Below, piece by piece: positions 13,849 through 47,691 of a stretch of DNA of 64,000 nt; position 1 is the stretch's first letter; each line of letters begins with the position of its first letter. Below the pieces are notes generated by a model. It did not search any database. It was not told where the DNA came from and saw nothing but the letters and a program-made list of their open reading frames with translations. The stretch lies in sequence record OK254197.1. The stretch is one strand, 5' to 3'. This stretch comes from Escherichia phage PNJ1902. Both the position numbers and the translations under genes were made by a program.

Positions 13849-13872
13849 AATAGCCCTTCGGGGCTATTATAT
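13849..13872 (+). terminator. Rho-independent terminator
   Basis: tagcccttcggggcta + T-rich. Confidence 0.55.
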
Positions 13873-13883
13873 TTAAATTTCAT

Positions 13884-13912
13884 TTGCTTATTTAGTGAAA
13901 TTTAAATATAAT
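13884..13912 (+). promoter_or_regulatory. sigma70-type early promoter (TTGCTT-17-TATAAT)
   Basis: Read from sequence. Confidence 0.55.
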
Positions 13913-14771: not shown

Positions 14772-15056
14772 ATGCGGATTTATAACTCAAATTCATTAGG
14801 ATTTAAGCCATTGAGAAAACGTGCACAATCACCTCGTCAAATAAGAAAGGCTAATATTGGTGAGCCAGAAACACGTCTTCCACCTCCTCCAGAGCAACGT
14901 TTAGTTTATCTGGACGAAGAGTTAGCTGAACGCGAAAGAAAAGCTCAAGAAGAGATTGAGCGTAAGAAAATGTGTACTGCTCCAGCCTACTCCAAAGGAG
15001 CTTATCAGTATATCTATACAGCCGAGGAGGCTAAAGATGCGGGGCGTAAAAAATGA
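14772..15056 (+). CDS. Hypothetical protein
   Basis: ORF track; GAGGAGGG RBS. Confidence 0.5.
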   Translation: MRIYNSNSLGFKPLRKRAQSPRQIRKANIGEPETRLPPPPEQRLVYLDEELAERERKAQEEIERKKMCTAPAYSKGAYQYIYTAEEAKDAGRKK

Positions 15057-16157: not shown

Positions 16158-16373
16158 ATGTTCTCTAAGAAACCACGTTCTGTTACTGAAATTGTTGCTT
16201 CCTTTACCACTATCACTGATGAGCTTCAAGCTCGTATTGAGGCTGATCAAAAAATCGCAGCTGATATTCAGAAACAGCAGGAAGAACTCGCTTTAAAGTT
16301 GGCTGAAACTAACAAGAGTGAAAAATCTGCCCAAACTATTATGGAAAATATCCTTAAACTGCTGGGCAAGTGA
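16158..16373 (+). CDS. Hypothetical small protein
   Basis: ORF track. Confidence 0.45.
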   Translation: MFSKKPRSVTEIVASFTTITDELQARIEADQKIAADIQKQQEELALKLAETNKSEKSAQTIMENILKLLGK

Positions 16374-39391: not shown

Positions 39392-40048
39392 TTGGAAAAG
39401 TTCTTACAATTATTAACGGTACTGCTCCAAGAAGCGAAAGATCCAGCATCGCTTCTTAAACGTCTGCTAACTATCTTAGTTGCTGTCATTATTTTCTTAT
39501 TTGTTAGTAATACTAGTGAGGTGATGTCATTCTTAAAGACTTTCTCCACGTCTGCGGTTCTACAGGATGTTCAAACTCAAAGGATAGATAACTTTCCTAA
39601 TGTAGCTAGAGAAAAGAGCATGGTACTCTTTTCTCAAACGGGTGCGGATGCTGTTTTTGTCGTCAAGTATAAACCCGATGCCATTAATGATTATTCTAAC
39701 ATTATTGCATGGGAAAGCAATGCGCAATTAGATAGGGCTGACTTGGCCGATAAAGCGGTAAATAAAACGTCTGAGCTATATAGACGTCACTTGGAAGGCT
39801 TTAACTACGCATCGGATTTAAGTGTAAAAGTAAATAAATACATGGGGTTAAATATACCTGCGTTTAAGAACGTTACTTTTAATTACATATACACTTGTCC
39901 GTATTTCAATCTAAACAATATCTATGCTGGATATATTGGTATTGCTTGGAAAGATAATCCTGTAGATGCAGCCGATTCTGAGAAATTTAACGAGTATTTA
40001 ACAAAGCTCTGTTCCCCACAACAGAGATCTTTAGGTAGATCAATATGA
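39392..40048 (+). CDS. Holin (T5-type), putative
   Basis: 218 aa with TM segment LTILVAVIIFLFV, immediately upstream of and overlapping endolysin gene; TTG start after GAGGAGG. Confidence 0.5.
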   Translation: MEKFLQLLTVLLQEAKDPASLLKRLLTILVAVIIFLFVSNTSEVMSFLKTFSTSAVLQDVQTQRIDNFPNVAREKSMVLFSQTGADAVFVVKYKPDAINDYSNIIAWESNAQLDRADLADKAVNKTSELYRRHLEGFNYASDLSVKVNKYMGLNIPAFKNVTFNYIYTCPYFNLNNIYAGYIGIAWKDNPVDAADSEKFNEYLTKLCSPQQRSLGRSI

Positions 40049-40458
40049 GTTTTAAATTTGGTAAAAATAGCGAAAAACAATTAGCTACCGTTAAGCCAGA
40101 GCTACAAAAAGTAGCTCGTAGAGCTTTAGAATTATCTCCGTATGATTTCACGATCGTACAGGGTATTCGTACAGTAGCACAAAGTGCCCAGAATATCGCT
40201 AATGGTACTTCATTTTTAAAAGATCCTAGTAAAAGCAAGCATATTACTGGGGATGCACTTGATTTTGCTCCATACATTAATGGCAAAATTGATTGGAATG
40301 ATTTAGAAGCATTTTGGGCAGTTAAAAAGGCTTTTGAACAAGCTGGTAAAGAACTAGGCATTAAACTTCGCTTTGGTGCTGATTGGAATGCTTCGGGAGA
40401 TTATCATGATGAAATAAAACGTGGTACCTATGATGGCGGTCATGTCGAACTAGTTTAA
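40045..40458 (+). CDS. Endolysin, L-alanyl-D-glutamate peptidase (M15-like)
   Basis: 137 aa; H...D...H zinc ligand pattern (HITGDALDF ... GGHVE); size and position match T5 endolysin as I recall it. Confidence 0.65.
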   Translation: MSFKFGKNSEKQLATVKPELQKVARRALELSPYDFTIVQGIRTVAQSAQNIANGTSFLKDPSKSKHITGDALDFAPYINGKIDWNDLEAFWAVKKAFEQAGKELGIKLRFGADWNASGDYHDEIKRGTYDGGHVELV

Positions 40459-42951: not shown

Positions 42952-43472
42952 TGAAAGTTTGTTTTTGGAGTGATCTCCACTTGGGGCATGCAAATATTAC
43001 TAAATTCAGACCAATCTTCTCTACTATGGAAGAGCATGACGAATTTATTATGGATACTATTACATCCGTGAAAGATAAGCGTACAGTATTCTATATTTTA
43101 GGAGACGCATTTGTATCTAGAAATGGTTTGGAAAAGTTCGAAAAACTCTTTGGCAATGTTAGAACTACGTTAGTTTTGGGAAACCACGACTTAGAACGAG
43201 AAGGATTATCTTTCAAAGACTTAATAGGGGTTGTAGATAACGTACAATCACTAGTTAAGTATAAAAACTTCTGGCTTTCCCATGCTCCAATACACCATGG
43301 GGAGCTGAGGGGTAAGAAGAACTTACATGGGCATACTCACTTTGAGCTAATGGGGGATCCTCGTTATATTAACGTTTGTGTCGAGTATGCAAAATCACCA
43401 GTACGTCTGGAAGACATCATGAGTGGTAAGTATACCTCACATGATAAAACTAGCTGGATGTTAAATGTCTAA
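42951..43472 (+). CDS. Calcineurin-like metallophosphoesterase
   Basis: SDLHLGH, GD, GNHD, HGHTH motifs. Confidence 0.6.
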   Translation: MKVCFWSDLHLGHANITKFRPIFSTMEEHDEFIMDTITSVKDKRTVFYILGDAFVSRNGLEKFEKLFGNVRTTLVLGNHDLEREGLSFKDLIGVVDNVQSLVKYKNFWLSHAPIHHGELRGKKNLHGHTHFELMGDPRYINVCVEYAKSPVRLEDIMSGKYTSHDKTSWMLNV

Positions 43473-43580
43473 GTATATAGCTGAGGCTATTATTAAACGA
43501 ATCATACAAGCGATAGCAATACTTATAATCATTTGTATTGCTATTGGTACAGGATTAGGCATTTTAATTAAAAGTTTTAT

Positions 43581-43609
43581 TTGCTAAAATGCTTAAGTTT
43601 CTGTATAAT
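43581..43609 (+). promoter_or_regulatory. sigma70-type early promoter (TTGCTA-17-TATAAT)
   Basis: Read from sequence. Confidence 0.55.
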
Positions 43610-43639
43610 TACTTTATAAATTGATGAGAAGGAATCAAA

Positions 43640-44071
43640 ATGAACAAAGTTGATAAAGCTCTAGTTTTCGCAGCAGCAGATAAGTTTGAACAAGTTAAGG
43701 CAACTTTCCGAACCTTGTTCCAGTCTTACGTTCAGGATAAGTCTAATCCTATCTCTGAACGTTTGATGGTCTGGGAATGTCATGCTTGCAATGCCCTATT
43801 AATTGCGGATTATCGTAGCGATATAGATAAAGATCTGTGCGAAATTCTTATCGCTGAGGAGGCAGAACGTTATCAGTTAATCTCTTTCCAAGATTTGGCG
43901 GAGCATATCATTCCTGATGATCTTTGGGATAAATACTATGGGGATCCTGAAGATGAAGGAATGACTCCAGAAGCCTGTATTGAGCTAATCTGCAAAAATC
44001 ATCCTGAAATTGCAGAGAAATTTGAAAAAGTTTTTGCTTCTGAGTTCTCCGGCGTTGTTAACGATTGGTAA
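43640..44071 (+). CDS. Hypothetical acidic protein
   Basis: ORF track; GAAGGAATCAAAATG. Confidence 0.5.
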   Translation: MNKVDKALVFAAADKFEQVKATFRTLFQSYVQDKSNPISERLMVWECHACNALLIADYRSDIDKDLCEILIAEEAERYQLISFQDLAEHIIPDDLWDKYYGDPEDEGMTPEACIELICKNHPEIAEKFEKVFASEFSGVVNDW

Positions 44072-44088
44072 GTAATTAAAAAATTCAG

Positions 44089-44116
44089 TTGCTTTAAGCC
44101 TTAAAATTCTGTATAA
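44089..44116 (+). promoter_or_regulatory. sigma70-type promoter (TTGCTT-16-TATAAT)
   Basis: Read from sequence. Confidence 0.5.
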
Positions 44117-44131
44117 TAAGTTCATAAATTA

Positions 44132-44401
44132 ATGAGAGAGGAAATTCTAATGGAAAACATGACTAAAAACGAAATGGCTAACGTTCTGGCAATTCTCCTC
44201 GACATGCAGGGTTTTGAGGGTCAGCTCATGAAGATGTCTATTCCGGCAATGAAAAAGATGTATGATTCTCTAAATAAGAATGCTATGGCATTCAACCTCG
44301 CAAAACAGGAAGCACGTTTTGCGAAAGAACATCAGGCTACTGCTGAACGCCGTGCAGCATCTTTTGAGCGTGAAGTTAAGCAACTGAAAGGTAAGAAATA
44401 A
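44132..44401 (+). CDS. Hypothetical protein
   Basis: ORF track. Confidence 0.45.
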   Translation: MREEILMENMTKNEMANVLAILLDMQGFEGQLMKMSIPAMKKMYDSLNKNAMAFNLAKQEARFAKEHQATAERRAASFEREVKQLKGKK

Positions 44402-44565
44402 TGGAAAGAGTATCAATCTCAATACTGTCATTCCTTATAGGAATACTAATATATAATATAGTTGCTCTTAATGTACACTTAACTGAGGTAGACAAATCTC
44501 TCCATGAGTTAAATGTAGAAATGTGTAAATTAGTCCCGGATAACGAAAAATGTAGGGGTACTTAA
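44401..44565 (+). CDS. Small membrane protein (54 aa)
   Basis: Hydrophobic; below ORF-track cutoff; translationally coupled. Confidence 0.3.
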   Translation: MERVSISILSFLIGILIYNIVALNVHLTEVDKSLHELNVEMCKLVPDNEKCRGT

Positions 44566-44846
44566 TGTTAATTGAAATTCTTATTGGATTGCTAGTGCTT
44601 ATGACACTAGTAGCTATAGGTGGGATTATTGGTATTGTAAGCATACGAAAAAATATGGAGAGTATGCTTATTACTAATAGTGGACTTCATTGCCGCTTAA
44701 TAGAACAAGAACAAGATATTGAACTAGCGCAAAGACGCTCAGATATTCTAAAAGAAAAACTAAACAATATTGAAGCAATAGCTGGGAATACAAAATTACC
44801 TAATAAAGTAATGCGTGCACAGATAATTACGGAGATTAAAAAATGA
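44565..44846 (+). CDS. Small membrane protein
   Basis: ORF track; N-terminal TM. Confidence 0.45.
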   Translation: MLIEILIGLLVLMTLVAIGGIIGIVSIRKNMESMLITNSGLHCRLIEQEQDIELAQRRSDILKEKLNNIEAIAGNTKLPNKVMRAQIITEIKK

Positions 44847-45088
44847 TGATGTTTATTCTAGCGTTTTATCTAATTGTGGTTGGTGTACTGGTTACTAAGT
44901 ATCACACATGGGCACCAAAGAATGTTGTTAAGGTAGCTTTATTTGTTATTCCAGTTCCACTTATTATCTTTTCTATGCTACTGGTAATGTTAGTTGGTAA
45001 AGTAACAAAAACCGATATTAAACGAATTGCGGATGAATTGCAACAGTCTTGTGATATGGTAGAGGACATTCTTAAAGATGAAGCTTAA
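44843..45088 (+). CDS. Small membrane protein
   Basis: ORF track; two TM segments. Confidence 0.45.
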   Translation: MMMFILAFYLIVVGVLVTKYHTWAPKNVVKVALFVIPVPLIIFSMLLVMLVGKVTKTDIKRIADELQQSCDMVEDILKDEA

Positions 45089-45404
45089 TTTTAATGAATT
45101 AAATACCTTACATGAGATATTACAGTTTGTGAATAATAATATTAGTATTCCAGATAATACATTAGAAGTTCTCATGTTAATCGAGAAAAAGGTAGGGATT
45201 GAAATTGAGGACTCTTGGAAACCACTTTCTGTATTAACACCTCTTAATATGAAAGTGATAGTTAAAAATATCGATACTGGTGAAGAATGTAAGATGATTC
45301 GTAAAGAGCTAGCTGATAGTTATTCACCAAAGTCTGTAGTAATGTATCATGATGACACACCTAAGGTTCTACAGACAGCTAATTACGTATGGCGTCTCCC
45401 ATGA
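45078..45404 (+). CDS. Hypothetical protein
   Basis: ORF track. Confidence 0.45.
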   Translation: MKLNFNELNTLHEILQFVNNNISIPDNTLEVLMLIEKKVGIEIEDSWKPLSVLTPLNMKVIVKNIDTGEECKMIRKELADSYSPKSVVMYHDDTPKVLQTANYVWRLP

Positions 45405-45503
45405 TTGATTTAGTACCAATTACTGCGGGGCTATTAGCACTATTAGTGCTTGCAGTTTTTATTATAGTGGAGCAGGCCAAAGTAATAAGGAGACTTAAAA
45501 ACA

Positions 45504-45704
45504 ATGATAAAACGTCTTGTTTATCAGGCACCAAAGATTGTAACTGAGTATTTTGTATTACTGCCTCAGATTGTATTTCTAACAGCATTATTTAATATAC
45601 TTTTTCGACATCTAGGAATAACAGAAAATATCTTCTACACTTCTGGACTACTTCCTTTTATGTACGAAGGCATCATCGTGGCAATTAACGGAGTTCGTAA
45701 ATGA
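45504..45704 (+). CDS. Small membrane protein
   Basis: ORF track. Confidence 0.4.
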   Translation: MIKRLVYQAPKIVTEYFVLLPQIVFLTALFNILFRHLGITENIFYTSGLLPFMYEGIIVAINGVRK

Positions 45705-46162
45705 CAGCACTACAACAACTACAGAATTACTGGTTTGATAACCAATTTAACGATCTCTTCATCCAGTTGTTTGTCGAAACGAACGGACGCTTCAACTACC
45801 GATTCTTTAATAAGTTTCACGAAACAAAATTCTCGCATACAGAAATTAATACAGCGATCCAAGACCTAACTGGTTCTAAAGTAGTTCAATATCGTGAAGT
45901 AGACTTTACACCAGATTGTTTTGGGTTTGAATTGTTTAAGAAAGCATATAAATTTGGTAAGTTTGAGGATGCTCGTCAATGGGTTCATGATTTCTGGTAC
46001 AACACTGATATTGTTCCTAGTCGTGTACTGATTCTTAACTGGATTGCTAAACAACATCCGCCTAAAGCTCAATCGTCCTTCTTACCAACTGACACAGGAA
46101 ACCTCTACCATGACAGAAAAGAAAAATCCATTGCTGGAGCAGATGAAGGAATGGGAGAGTAA
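45701..46162 (+). CDS. Hypothetical protein
   Basis: ORF track. Confidence 0.5.
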   Translation: MTALQQLQNYWFDNQFNDLFIQLFVETNGRFNYRFFNKFHETKFSHTEINTAIQDLTGSKVVQYREVDFTPDCFGFELFKKAYKFGKFEDARQWVHDFWYNTDIVPSRVLILNWIAKQHPPKAQSSFLPTDTGNLYHDRKEKSIAGADEGMGE

Positions 46163-46481
46163 TATTGAATCTGGTCTAGTAGACGGAGAAGATATTGTTA
46201 ACTCCATGTTAGAAGTAACAATAGATAATATTGATCCTATTTTGGCCAGTGAAACTTCAGATCTTATAGGACTTTCTATTGCATTTGATTCTTTGGGTCG
46301 GTTAGCCTTAGATGACGAAGAGATAACTAAAGAAGATCTTGCGAAGGCCATGGATATGGCTATTGTAGCTTACATTAGTAAACGCACTGATGAACTCGGC
46401 AAACAGATCAAAAAGCGTGATACAACATTAAATCTTATGGAAACGGCCACTATTTTAAGAAGTGGTAAACAACTTCATTAA
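46107..46481 (+). CDS. Hypothetical acidic protein
   Basis: In-frame ATG within track ORF 46044..46481. Confidence 0.4.
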   Translation, partial: TMTEKKNPLLEQMKEWESNIESGLVDGEDIVNSMLEVTIDNIDPILASETSDLIGLSIAFDSLGRLALDDEEITKEDLAKAMDMAIVAYISKRTDELGKQIKKRDTTLNLMETATILRSGKQLH

Positions 46482-46488
46482 TTCTAGA

Positions 46489-46517
46489 GGCCAGGACTTA
46501 ATTGTTCTGGCCTTTTG
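46489..46517 (+). terminator. Rho-independent terminator
   Basis: ggccaggacttaattgttctggcc + TTTT. Confidence 0.55.
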
Positions 46518-46739
46518 TGTTTCAAGGAACTTCAGATGCAAGTATATGTACTTACTAGAGATATAAATGAGTATAATCAGGATGGTGAATATTTTGTAAA
46601 GGTATTCGCTGAAAAGCCAAGTAAACAACAATTATTAGATGCTGGAGTACCAGAAGACCAGGCTAAGTGTATACTACAAGATAAAGAATTTACTGGTGAT
46701 GCTTACGAATGTTTCTACCTTAGCTGTGAGAATATCTAA
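46515..46739 (+). CDS. Hypothetical small protein
   Basis: ORF track. Confidence 0.4.
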   Translation: MCFKELQMQVYVLTRDINEYNQDGEYFVKVFAEKPSKQQLLDAGVPEDQAKCILQDKEFTGDAYECFYLSCENI

Positions 46740-46740
46740 T

Positions 46741-47187
46741 ATGAGAGAAAAAGTAAATGAATTACTAATCGAGGAAGCTAACAACTTTCCAATAAACAGG
46801 TTTATCAAATCGGATGGATCTATTAATAGAACTAAGATTAAGCAGCTACATCCTGACTTTCAACAAGAAGCACTAAACCTTATATTTATCAAGAAAGCTA
46901 TTGCAGTTCATGGAGCTTTCTTTGGATATGAGCGTGTAAATTACAAAACAATGCAACAGCAAGTCGAGATCTATTGTCCAGATCATGATGGTTATTACTG
47001 GCAAACTGCTAGATCTCATTTAGAAGGGCATGGTTGTCGACTGTGTGCACACAAGGTTGTGCAGCGTGTCACAGATTATGGAACCTATACCGTACCAGCA
47101 TGTTATCATAAATTTGTAGTTGACGATAATCATATAGTTTGGTATAATAAGTTTTCAAAGTTAAGAATGGAGATAAATAGTGAGTAG
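46741..47187 (+). CDS. Zn-finger domain protein, paralog of N-terminal domain of 49208..49936
   Basis: Shared block QLHPDFQQEALNLIFI.KA...YERVNYKT...QTARSHL.GHGC..CA. Confidence 0.5.
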   Translation: MREKVNELLIEEANNFPINRFIKSDGSINRTKIKQLHPDFQQEALNLIFIKKAIAVHGAFFGYERVNYKTMQQQVEIYCPDHDGYYWQTARSHLEGHGCRLCAHKVVQRVTDYGTYTVPACYHKFVVDDNHIVWYNKFSKLRMEINSE

Positions 47188-47470
47188 CTATATTATATGG
47201 TCAAATCCATTAGCAGCACTTAGTAACAAACTATTTAAAACAACATGGGGCTATAATGAAATAGACTTAAGCAGTCGCCCCATACCAAATACATGCTCTC
47301 TAGTCCCAGATCTGTATAAAGTAGTAATAAATAACGTAGAATATTTGGTTGACGAATTTGACAGAAGGTATATACTAGAGTGCATTTATGATAACAATAC
47401 ATCAATGAATGAACTAATAGATCATGCCCAAATGTGTGATAAAAGCTGGATGTTAATATGGAAATCATAG
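47180..47470 (+). CDS. Hypothetical protein
   Basis: ORF track. Confidence 0.45.
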   Translation: MSSYIIWSNPLAALSNKLFKTTWGYNEIDLSSRPIPNTCSLVPDLYKVVINNVEYLVDEFDRRYILECIYDNNTSMNELIDHAQMCDKSWMLIWKS

Positions 47471-47691
47471 CAATTATTTTAGTAGTTATGTTATTCATCG
47501 TAGTACTTGTATCTTTTGCTATTATGCGTAGAGCTAGAGAACTAGCAGAAGATCTAATAAAATTACGTGGTGAGGTAGCGGGTCTAAAACTACAACGTGA
47601 AGCTCTCAAGCTATTCGTAGCTCAAGGTAGTGTAGAGCATACAGCAGAAGACTTCATCATATATCTCAAACGTTACATGGGAGTTAAATAA
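47458..47691 (+). CDS. Small membrane protein
   Basis: ORF track; N-terminal TM. Confidence 0.45.
   Translation: MEIIAIILVVMLFIVVLVSFAIMRRARELAEDLIKLRGEVAGLKLQREALKLFVAQGSVEHTAEDFIIYLKRYMGVK

Follow-up and report, generated by a model that had tools for sequence, protein, structure and literature searches.

A conserved early operon of Escherichia phage PNJ1902 encodes five very small inner-membrane proteins among soluble ones

The goal of this study was to characterize a run of small genes at positions 44401-45704 of a 64,000-nucleotide stretch of DNA from Escherichia phage PNJ1902 (sequence record OK254197.1), referred to below as the window. Positions are those of the window unless another record is named. 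A preliminary description had taken the run for at least six consecutive membrane-protein genes with one or two helices each. The run is the promoter-proximal two thirds of the conserved T5.032-T5.025 early operon, which consists of nine translationally coupled genes behind a strong, invariant sigma-70 promoter. In this operon the soluble products T5.032h, T5.028h, T5.026h and T5.025h (homologues of phage T5 genes are marked with an h) are interleaved with five very small inner-membrane proteins. The arrangement within the run is three membrane genes, one soluble gene and two membrane genes.

An early operon of coupled small genes

The window belongs to a T5-like phage (Tequintavirus; Demerecviridae, Markadamsvirinae). 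A megablast search with positions 43600-46500 returned 440 phage records, all the best of which were T5-like; the best match, PP429240, was 97.4% identical over the full length. Comparison with the T5 reference record identified the genes at 44401-45704 as homologues of T5.031, T5.030, T5.029, T5.028 and T5.027 plus a gene of 48 codons. The T5 counterpart of these coordinates is NC_005859 14684-15987, which lies inside the T5.032 to T5.025 transcription unit. When the products were searched with tblastn against T5 and 10 other T5-like loci, the gene order was the same as in T5 and amino-acid identity to T5 was 69-100%. T5.031h was the most diverged member (69%), while T5.030 (86%), T5.029 (94%), T5.028 (83%) and T5.027 (97%) were closer. 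All six open reading frames (ORFs) of the preliminary description, of 54, 93, 81, 108, 48 and 66 amino acids (aa), are present.

The features of the operon are given below. Hydrophobic helices were identified with the Kyte-Doolittle scale over a 19-residue window (KD19); TM denotes transmembrane.

44089..44117, + strand: early sigma-70 promoter, with -35 TTGCTT (44089-44094), a 17-nt spacer and -10 TATAAT (44112-44117)
44150..44401, + strand: T5.032h, 83 aa, soluble, first gene of the operon and outside the run described here (Pfam DUF7179, E=7.5e-36; phrog_3880)
44401..44565, + strand: T5.031h, 54 aa, N-terminal TM helix and tail (phrog_29567, E=2.4e-34; KD19 2.31)
44565..44846, + strand: T5.030h, 93 aa, one N-terminal TM helix (phrog_4984, E=1.2e-49; KD19 2.72)
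44843..45088, + strand: T5.029h, 81 aa, two TM helices, KYHTWxPK loop and charged C-terminal helix (Pfam DUF7442)
45078..45404, + strand: T5.028h, 108 aa, predicted soluble (KD19 maximum 0.73; AlphaFold model)
45401..45547 (alternative start 45389), + strand: single-TM gene, 48 aa (KD19 2.88; frame conservation)
45504..45704, + strand: T5.027h, 66 aa, with its own AAGGAG ribosome-binding site (phrog_5967, E=7.1e-42)
45701..46162, + strand: T5.026h, 153 aa, RNA polymerase beta-subunit binder of the early-to-late switch (97% identity to T5.026)
46110..46481, + strand: T5.025h, 123 aa, acidic, soluble, last gene of the operon (phrog_4905; 87% identity to T5.025)
46486..46515, + strand: intrinsic terminator at the end of the operon, a 12-bp stem followed by a T run

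Gene order, identity, promoter and terminator all place the run in the T5.032-T5.025 operon. The promoter that had been proposed at 44089 proved to be base-for-base the same as the annotated T5 promoter (16245-16319), and its TTGC and TATAAT elements were invariant in an alignment of 7 phages from 5 Demerecviridae genera. A generic consensus scan missed this promoter because TTGCTT agrees with TTGACA at only 3/6 positions. The terminator corresponds to the annotated T5 terminator at 13864-13898. No RNA family of Rfam was found within 43500-47000.

Translational coupling had also been proposed, and start and stop codons do overlap at every junction. In gene order from T5.032h onward the overlaps are TAATG, TAATG, ATGA, 11 nt, ATGA and 44 nt, and the start of T5.026h is again an ATGA, at 45701.

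Proteins with at least one hydrophobic segment of ~19 residues that was kept in their homologues were classified as membrane proteins. Such a segment was found in T5.031h, T5.030h, T5.029h, the 48-aa protein and T5.027h, with KD19 values of 2.04-2.88 and the segments kept in the alignments. T5.028h has none; its KD19 maximum is 0.73 and its AlphaFold model is that of a soluble protein. The membrane character claimed for the whole run thus holds for 5/6 products, and T5.028h splits the run. A KD19 of at least 2.0 was reached by ~16% of the ATG-initiated ORFs of 45-110 aa in the window, versus 3% in shuffled sequence. Five of six products reaching a score of 2.0 therefore exceeds chance (P ~6e-4). 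The RefSeq record of T5 already notes TM domains, one or two, in T5.031, T5.030, T5.029 and T5.027. By the positive-inside rule T5.030h and the 48-aa protein would have the C-terminus inside and T5.027h both termini inside, while T5.029h was ambiguous.

The individual proteins differ in architecture. T5.030h was modeled by AlphaFold (predicted local distance difference test, pLDDT, 90.8) as a helix of residues 2-73, which comprises the TM segment and ~47 further residues, then a GNxKLP turn and a second helix of residues 80-92. T5.029h matched DUF7442 over residues 3-81 with 140.7 bits against a cut-off of 23.8, as did 9/9 aligned members of the family. Its TM helices are residues 1-19 and 33-51 (KD19 2.32 and 2.88), and the tail contains 6 K/R and 9 D/E. 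T5.027h has one clear helix (KD19 2.04) and one marginal helix (1.53); the T5 RefSeq note gives two transmembrane domains.

T5.028h is, according to its AlphaFold model (14 homologues, pLDDT 93.4), a soluble protein made of a helical hairpin and a five-stranded Tudor/SH3-like beta domain, and not a membrane protein. A Foldseek search of the PDB with this model gave nothing below E=0.04, and the matches were Tudor or SH3-like domains. Against BFVD, Foldseek gave only uncharacterized phage proteins and weak DUF551-like matches. The gross layout recalls GreA/Gfh1. Those Foldseek matches were far from significant (TM-score 0.23-0.30), and the resemblance is mentioned solely since the neighbouring T5.026 binds RNA polymerase.

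Family assignments add little to this picture. The PHROGs of the membrane/soluble block (29567, 4984, 4804, 4731 and 5967) are all function-unknown families. Full-length, above-threshold Pfam matches were to DUF7442 ('Phage membrane protein'), DUF7179 and DUF7020, which are catalogue entries without a known function.

Selection was examined by comparing the window with 11 loci, six from Tequintavirus (T5, DT57C, HMD-7, Lindwurm, Baret and VSe12) and five from Epseptimavirus (vB_SenS-3, TrudiGerster, MSP1, phiR2-01 and S124). Third-position changes were in excess in every gene. The pooled ratio of nonsynonymous to synonymous change (pN/pS) was 0.27 for T5.030h, 0.22 for T5.029h, 0.36 for T5.028h, 0.38 for the 48-aa ORF, 0.46 for T5.027h, 0.13 for T5.026h and 0.47 for T5.025h; T5.032h was the most constrained gene of the operon (0.035). 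Judged by these patterns, all six ORFs of the run are real genes under purifying selection. The preliminary description would have been contradicted by missing helices or missing conservation. KD19 found helices in five products, and all six are conserved. T5.032h is 99-100% identical in amino acids between Tequintavirus and Epseptimavirus despite synonymous divergence (dS) of 0.3-0.8, and is still 'Not Fit' in the CRISPRi-ART screen discussed below.

The distribution of the genes was examined with tblastn against 50,697 phage records. T5.029h matched 438 records, T5.027h 437 and the 48-aa gene, a short query, 397. T5.030h matched 518 records, including 82 Klebsiella Sugarlandvirus phages, and T5.028h matched 529, out to phages of Klebsiella, Proteus and Providencia. 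Apart from the T5.031 position, the genes are near-universal in Markadamsvirinae (~400-440 genomes). In homologue searches of 5.8 billion proteins, every match was a T5-like phage sequence, and length was constant. When the T5.029 family was used as a profile in an exhaustive search of 1.84 billion cluster representatives, only two clusters were found, of 80-82 aa and the same architecture.

The layout extends to more distant phages. In Klebsiella phage IME260 the order is T5.032h, T5.030h, an 82-aa two-TM protein with a KYH loop, T5.028h, a 75-aa T5.027-like protein and T5.026h, without T5.031 and without the 48-aa gene. In Providencia phage PSTCR5, T5.032h is followed by unrelated proteins of 70, 60 and 122 aa, each with a single TM helix and the largest also with a coiled coil, and then by T5.028h and T5.026h. 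Sugarlandvirus and Priunavirus thus keep a run of small TM proteins between T5.032h and T5.026h, although the individual TM proteins differ.

The exchangeable T5.031 position and the 48-codon gene

The position occupied by T5.031h, here called the T5.031 slot, holds different proteins in different phages. The tail of T5.031h carries the motif ELxVEMCKxxPxNEKC (Cys-x8-Cys). Short forms of 52-54 aa were found in 145 records and fall into two types, with differing TM sequences and a common C-terminal motif. Long forms of 119-137 aa, consisting of a TM helix and a ~100-aa domain, were found in 199 records with identities down to 31%. No relationship between the short and long forms was detectable. 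The slot is empty in DT57C, and it contains an HNH homing endonuclease in VSe12 and in a metagenomic contig (L008 923-1459; L014 875-1411). These comparisons show that the slot is a swap-out cassette that is exchanged, lost or invaded by homing endonucleases, and that the promoter-proximal end of the operon is a hot spot for mobile-element insertion. In S124 an HNH homing endonuclease lies between T5.033h and T5.032h (L011 697-1227).

Positive selection was considered as a source of this diversity and was not found. The pairwise ratio of nonsynonymous to synonymous substitution rates (dN/dS) of T5.031h was ~0.2-0.4 across the compared pairs and 0.20-0.27 in diverged pairs, and the tail was more constrained than the TM half. 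Ratios of this size indicate that variation in the slot comes from cassette replacement, not from point diversification.

The 48-codon ORF was tested separately, because the T5 RefSeq record leaves 100 bp at this place unannotated. The frame is open in 12/12 genomes, and the other two frames contain 4-7 stops. The invariant AVFIIVEQAKVIRRLKN core of the protein has synonymous third-position changes throughout, and in the N-terminal half the amino acids vary while hydrophobicity is kept. Whether ATG, TTG or GTG, the start codon overlaps the stop of T5.028h (TGA) in every case. The gene has been annotated elsewhere as a hypothetical protein (vBSenS3_35, bas27_0171, bas32_0163 and Gostya9 gp021). 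It is annotated in some BASEL and Epseptimavirus genomes and omitted in most Tequintavirus records. In T5 the sequence is 96% conserved (NC_005859 ~14844-14987), yet RefSeq has no annotation there, and the table of coding sequences (CDS) used in CRISPRi-ART has no entry between T5.027 and T5.028. No PHROG and no Pfam family was found for the protein. The pattern of conservation shows the ORF to be a genuine gene. It is missing from many records and is not new.

In phage Lindwurm a terminator is annotated at a weak hairpin (45436-45450 in the window). This feature was rejected, since Epseptimavirus phages do not keep the hairpin and it falls within the reading frame of the 48-aa protein. The idea that the 48-codon ORF and its like are chance ORFs in AT-rich DNA, and the stretch an intergenic region with a ribosome-binding site and a weak hairpin, could draw on this hairpin, on the unannotated 100 bp of T5, on the terminator placed there in one record and on the coincidence of the conserved EQAKVIRRLKN codons with the T5.027h ribosome-binding site; with the frame conservation, synonymous changes and kept hydrophobicity just described, the loss of the hairpin in Epseptimavirus and the prediction of the gene by gene callers in many genomes, we consider it highly improbable.

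Possible functions of the membrane proteins

The run is separate from the lysis cassette, as the preliminary description had said. The cassette consists of a holin (39392-40048) and an endolysin homologue (40045-40458) identified by synteny with T5.041/T5.040. The holin is of the T4 T type (Pfam Phage_holin_T, E=8e-114), so a cognate holin for an RI-type antiholin is present in the genome. It starts at a TTG codon. In T5 the orthologous gene is preceded by an annotated promoter and belongs to the early region, and the part of the T5 record that was inspected has no annotated homologue of RI or RIII.

Published screens give some information on dispensability. In the transcriptome-wide CRISPRi-ART knock-down screen of T5 in a laboratory E. 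coli host, T5.027 to T5.032 were 'Not Fit', with no measurable loss of phage growth, and T5.026 was the only 'Fit' gene of the operon (PMC11879866, supplementary file 16). The T5 genes that Mahata et al. screened for toxicity were T5.002 to T5.017 only. HIDEN-SEQ included no mapping of T5-like phages, and T5 appears in its main text solely as a control phage. A literature search found no paper naming T5.027-T5.031 or the corresponding domains of unknown function (DUFs).

In a contig from Logan accession SRR32733422 (L014 1686-1931, protein P0146), residues 1-26 of T5.029 run in frame into T5.027, which is retained from ..APKIVTEYF; the junction is an APK microhomology common to both. The second TM helix and tail of T5.029, T5.028, the 48-aa gene and the N-terminus of T5.027 are deleted. 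The fusion arose either by natural deletion or as an artefact of assembly; it again hints at dispensability, but only in a single contig. An accessory or conditional role fits early genes that are 'Not Fit' and a T5.031 slot that is replaceable; neither observation favours one of the functions that the preliminary description had put forward. Those were superinfection exclusion, depolarization and targeting of host transporters, and we cannot tell which of them, if any, applies. The explanations are ranked below as guarding of the envelope, inhibition of the host inner membrane, tethering, anti-defence and pore formation, in that order, with no homology behind any of them.

Our preferred explanation, to which we give a probability of about one in three, is that the membrane proteins guard the envelope of the infected cell, by superinfection exclusion and/or by restraint of the T-type holin, as a functional analogue of T4 Imm, Sp, RI and RIII. 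The proteins would be accessory proteins that enter the host inner membrane minutes after DNA entry, and coupled translation would set fixed ratios among them. The working parts may be the conserved soluble tails, namely QRRSDILKEKL...ITEIKK in T5.030, ADELQQSxDxIEDILKDEA in T5.029 and EQAKVIRRLKN in the 48-aa protein. DNA entry of superinfecting phages would be blocked at the inner membrane, and/or the T4-type holin of the early region would be held back. The set would be an analogue, not a homologue, of the T4 Imm/Sp/RI/RIII network around holin T.

The comparison with T4 is one of layout. T4 Imm has 83 aa and 2 TM helices, Sp and RI have ~97 aa and an N-terminal hydrophobic segment, and RIII is small and soluble. 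The likeness lies in size (54-108 aa here, ~82-97 aa in T4), in the mix of one-TM, two-TM and soluble proteins, in early expression and in the T-type holin. In T4 the genes are scattered, whereas here they form one coupled operon, and there is no sequence or profile similarity. The T4 network acts in exclusion and lysis inhibition, to which the window proteins are likened by analogy only. By contrast, T5 shares with the window the orthologues, their order, the overlaps, the promoter and the terminator, and its RefSeq record differs in lacking the 48-aa annotation.

Several observations count against envelope guarding. Pfam, PHROGs, NCBIfam, PADLOC and hhalign revealed no similarity, in sequence or in profile, to Imm, Sp, RI, or any superinfection exclusion (Sie) or antiholin family, so the comparison with known Imm/Sie proteins that the preliminary description had recommended yielded no match in the first four of these. 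In particular, Pfam Imm_superinfect gave no match to the six products at E<=1 or to 9 T5.029 members at E<=5, and no such PHROG was found at E<=0.01. Since the holin is T-type, the T5.031-slot proteins were tested against T4 RI, and this candidate homology was rejected with an hhalign probability of <1% for both the short and the long alignments. The positive-inside rule gives opposite orientations for two short T5.031 variants, so a periplasm-facing tail is not established. T5.029, T5.030 and T5.027 evolve slowly, which is less typical of arms-race exclusion genes. To our knowledge T5 does not show T4-like lysis inhibition. The documented superinfection exclusion of T5 is due to the lipoprotein Llp and acts at the receptor. 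A lipobox, as in exclusion lipoproteins of the Llp/Cor type, was absent: inspection of the six translations showed no cysteine within the first 39 residues of any of them. Finally, only 17 genes were 'Fit' in the whole of T5 (PMC11879866), so 'Not Fit' is weak evidence of dispensability.

A more elaborate form of envelope guarding can be imagined, in which the T5.031-T5.027 block would be one hetero-oligomeric inner-membrane complex, a non-homologous counterpart of T4 Imm/Sp/RI/RIII that times the holin and excludes superinfection and is maybe coupled to T5.026. We consider this a long shot.

The next explanation, which is possible and which we hold with doubt, is that the proteins are inhibitors used in host takeover. 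Each would block a host inner-membrane machine, such as the divisome (FtsB/FtsL/FtsQ), lipid II synthesis or flipping, transporters, or FtsH. Host growth would be stopped and resources redirected, as with SPO1 gp56, staphylococcal phage Gp11 and single-gene lysis proteins. Early expression from a strong promoter is in keeping with such a role. FtsB and FtsL are bitopic TM proteins with a long helix, and T5.030h, which is bitopic with a long helix in its predicted structure, has the same gross architecture. Conserved host targets would fit the strong conservation of the tails among phages that infect Escherichia, Salmonella, Yersinia and Klebsiella. There is also a precedent (PMC11237401), a small membrane protein of a phage for which a block of both cell division and peptidoglycan synthesis is documented. 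On the other hand, Pfam and PHROGs gave no similarity to any such inhibitor, the range of the toxicity screen ended at T5.017, and the genes were 'Not Fit' in the knock-down screen.

Tethering is unlikely. Here the TM proteins would form a membrane scaffold that holds T5.028, T5.032, T5.025 and/or T5.026 and so places or times replication or the early-to-late switch. TM and soluble genes alternate under strict translational coupling, and the backbone of T5.032, T5.028 and T5.026 with TM proteins between them is kept across Demerecviridae genera. With the predicted C-in topology, the conserved tails would be cytoplasmic in T5.030 and the 48-aa protein, and the exposed helical hairpin in the model of T5.028h could pair with the T5.030 helix. 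T5.026 binds the RNA polymerase beta subunit and aids the early-to-late switch; phage mutated in T5.026 is viable, and lysis is prolonged (Klimuk et al. 2020, PMC7472727). However, T5.026 was recovered with soluble RNA polymerase and acts in vitro without membranes (PMC7472727). Knock-down phenotypes also differ, T5.026 being 'Fit' and the TM genes 'Not Fit'.

We regard anti-defence as quite unlikely. The proteins would act against membrane-acting abortive-infection effectors or envelope-linked immunity and would be needed on wild hosts only. This would explain genes that have no measurable fitness effect on the laboratory K-12 host yet are near-universal in nature, and it agrees with cassette turnover in the T5.031 slot. 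Against it, no similarity to a known anti-defence protein was found, the PADLOC matches were weak and generic, and the core members evolve slowly.

Least probable among the ranked functions, and in our view very unlikely, is that T5.029h and perhaps T5.027h are class II holin-like or pinholin-like pore formers that depolarize the membrane. With 81 aa, two TM helices and a highly charged C-terminus, T5.029h does have the architecture of a class II holin or pinholin, and one UniRef record labels a member of the T5.029 family 'Holin'. Weak matches of T5.029h to small pore-forming families were also seen, to RTasSLATT (E=0.009), SLATT_5 (E=0.055), SpoIISA (E=0.13) and Phage_holin_6_1 (E=0.75). SLATT effectors of bacterial defence resemble T5.029h in having a two-TM hairpin followed by a helix (weak match over residues 2-73). 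The SLATT assignment was nevertheless rejected: scores were 13-14 bits where the cut-off is 60, no Pfam SLATT family matched even at E<=5, and the exhaustive profile search contained no SLATT proteins and no relatives outside T5-like phages. The resemblance most probably reflects generic hydrophobicity. All of the weak matches were far under family cut-offs, including that to Phage_holin_6_1, the best holin match. Pfam, PHROGs, NCBIfam and PADLOC gave no similarity of any of the six products to characterized holin or toxin families. Nor is T5.029h linked to an endolysin; it is an early gene in another transcription unit, 4.4 kb from the true holin and endolysin, and an early depolarizing pore would harm the phage.

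Neighbouring genes and significance

Other small TM proteins are encoded near the operon. Upstream, an ORF of 40 aa at 43465-43587 has a single TM helix, and its ATG overlaps the end of the phosphoesterase gene T5.034h. Its counterparts are annotated as a 33-aa CDS in vB_SenS-3 and TrudiGerster and as a 40-aa CDS in Baret; none is annotated in T5. The next transcription unit, at 47458-47691 and downstream, encodes more single-TM early proteins, T5.021h (DUF7237, KD19 3.43) and T5.020h. Small membrane proteins are a general trait of the left-end early region, beyond the T5.032-T5.025 operon.

Some matching records carried unexpected labels. These were 'Listeria phage LM 4-11-1' and 'LM 4-14-1' (fragments of 3-8 kb, 93% identical), a 115-kb 'Brucella melitensis' contig, and Shigella and Salmonella 'genome' contigs of 105-115 kb. 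'Klebsiella phage KPP2018' (138 kb) matched at two places. The oddly labelled records probably reflect contamination or chimeric assembly of T5-like phage sequences.

Public annotation already covers the genes, their families and the membrane character of their products, so the finding is a rediscovery and adds no functional knowledge. Its practical output is threefold. The 48-codon gene belongs in the T5 RefSeq record and in many others, T5.028 should not be counted as a membrane protein, and the T5.031 position is a hot spot of cassette exchange. If the functions of these proteins were known, they could explain how the envelope of the infected cell is protected by T5-like phages, a group in wide use for biocontrol, and how the T4-type holin of the early region is kept from firing too soon. 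Five protein families found in ~440 sequenced phages would then have a function.

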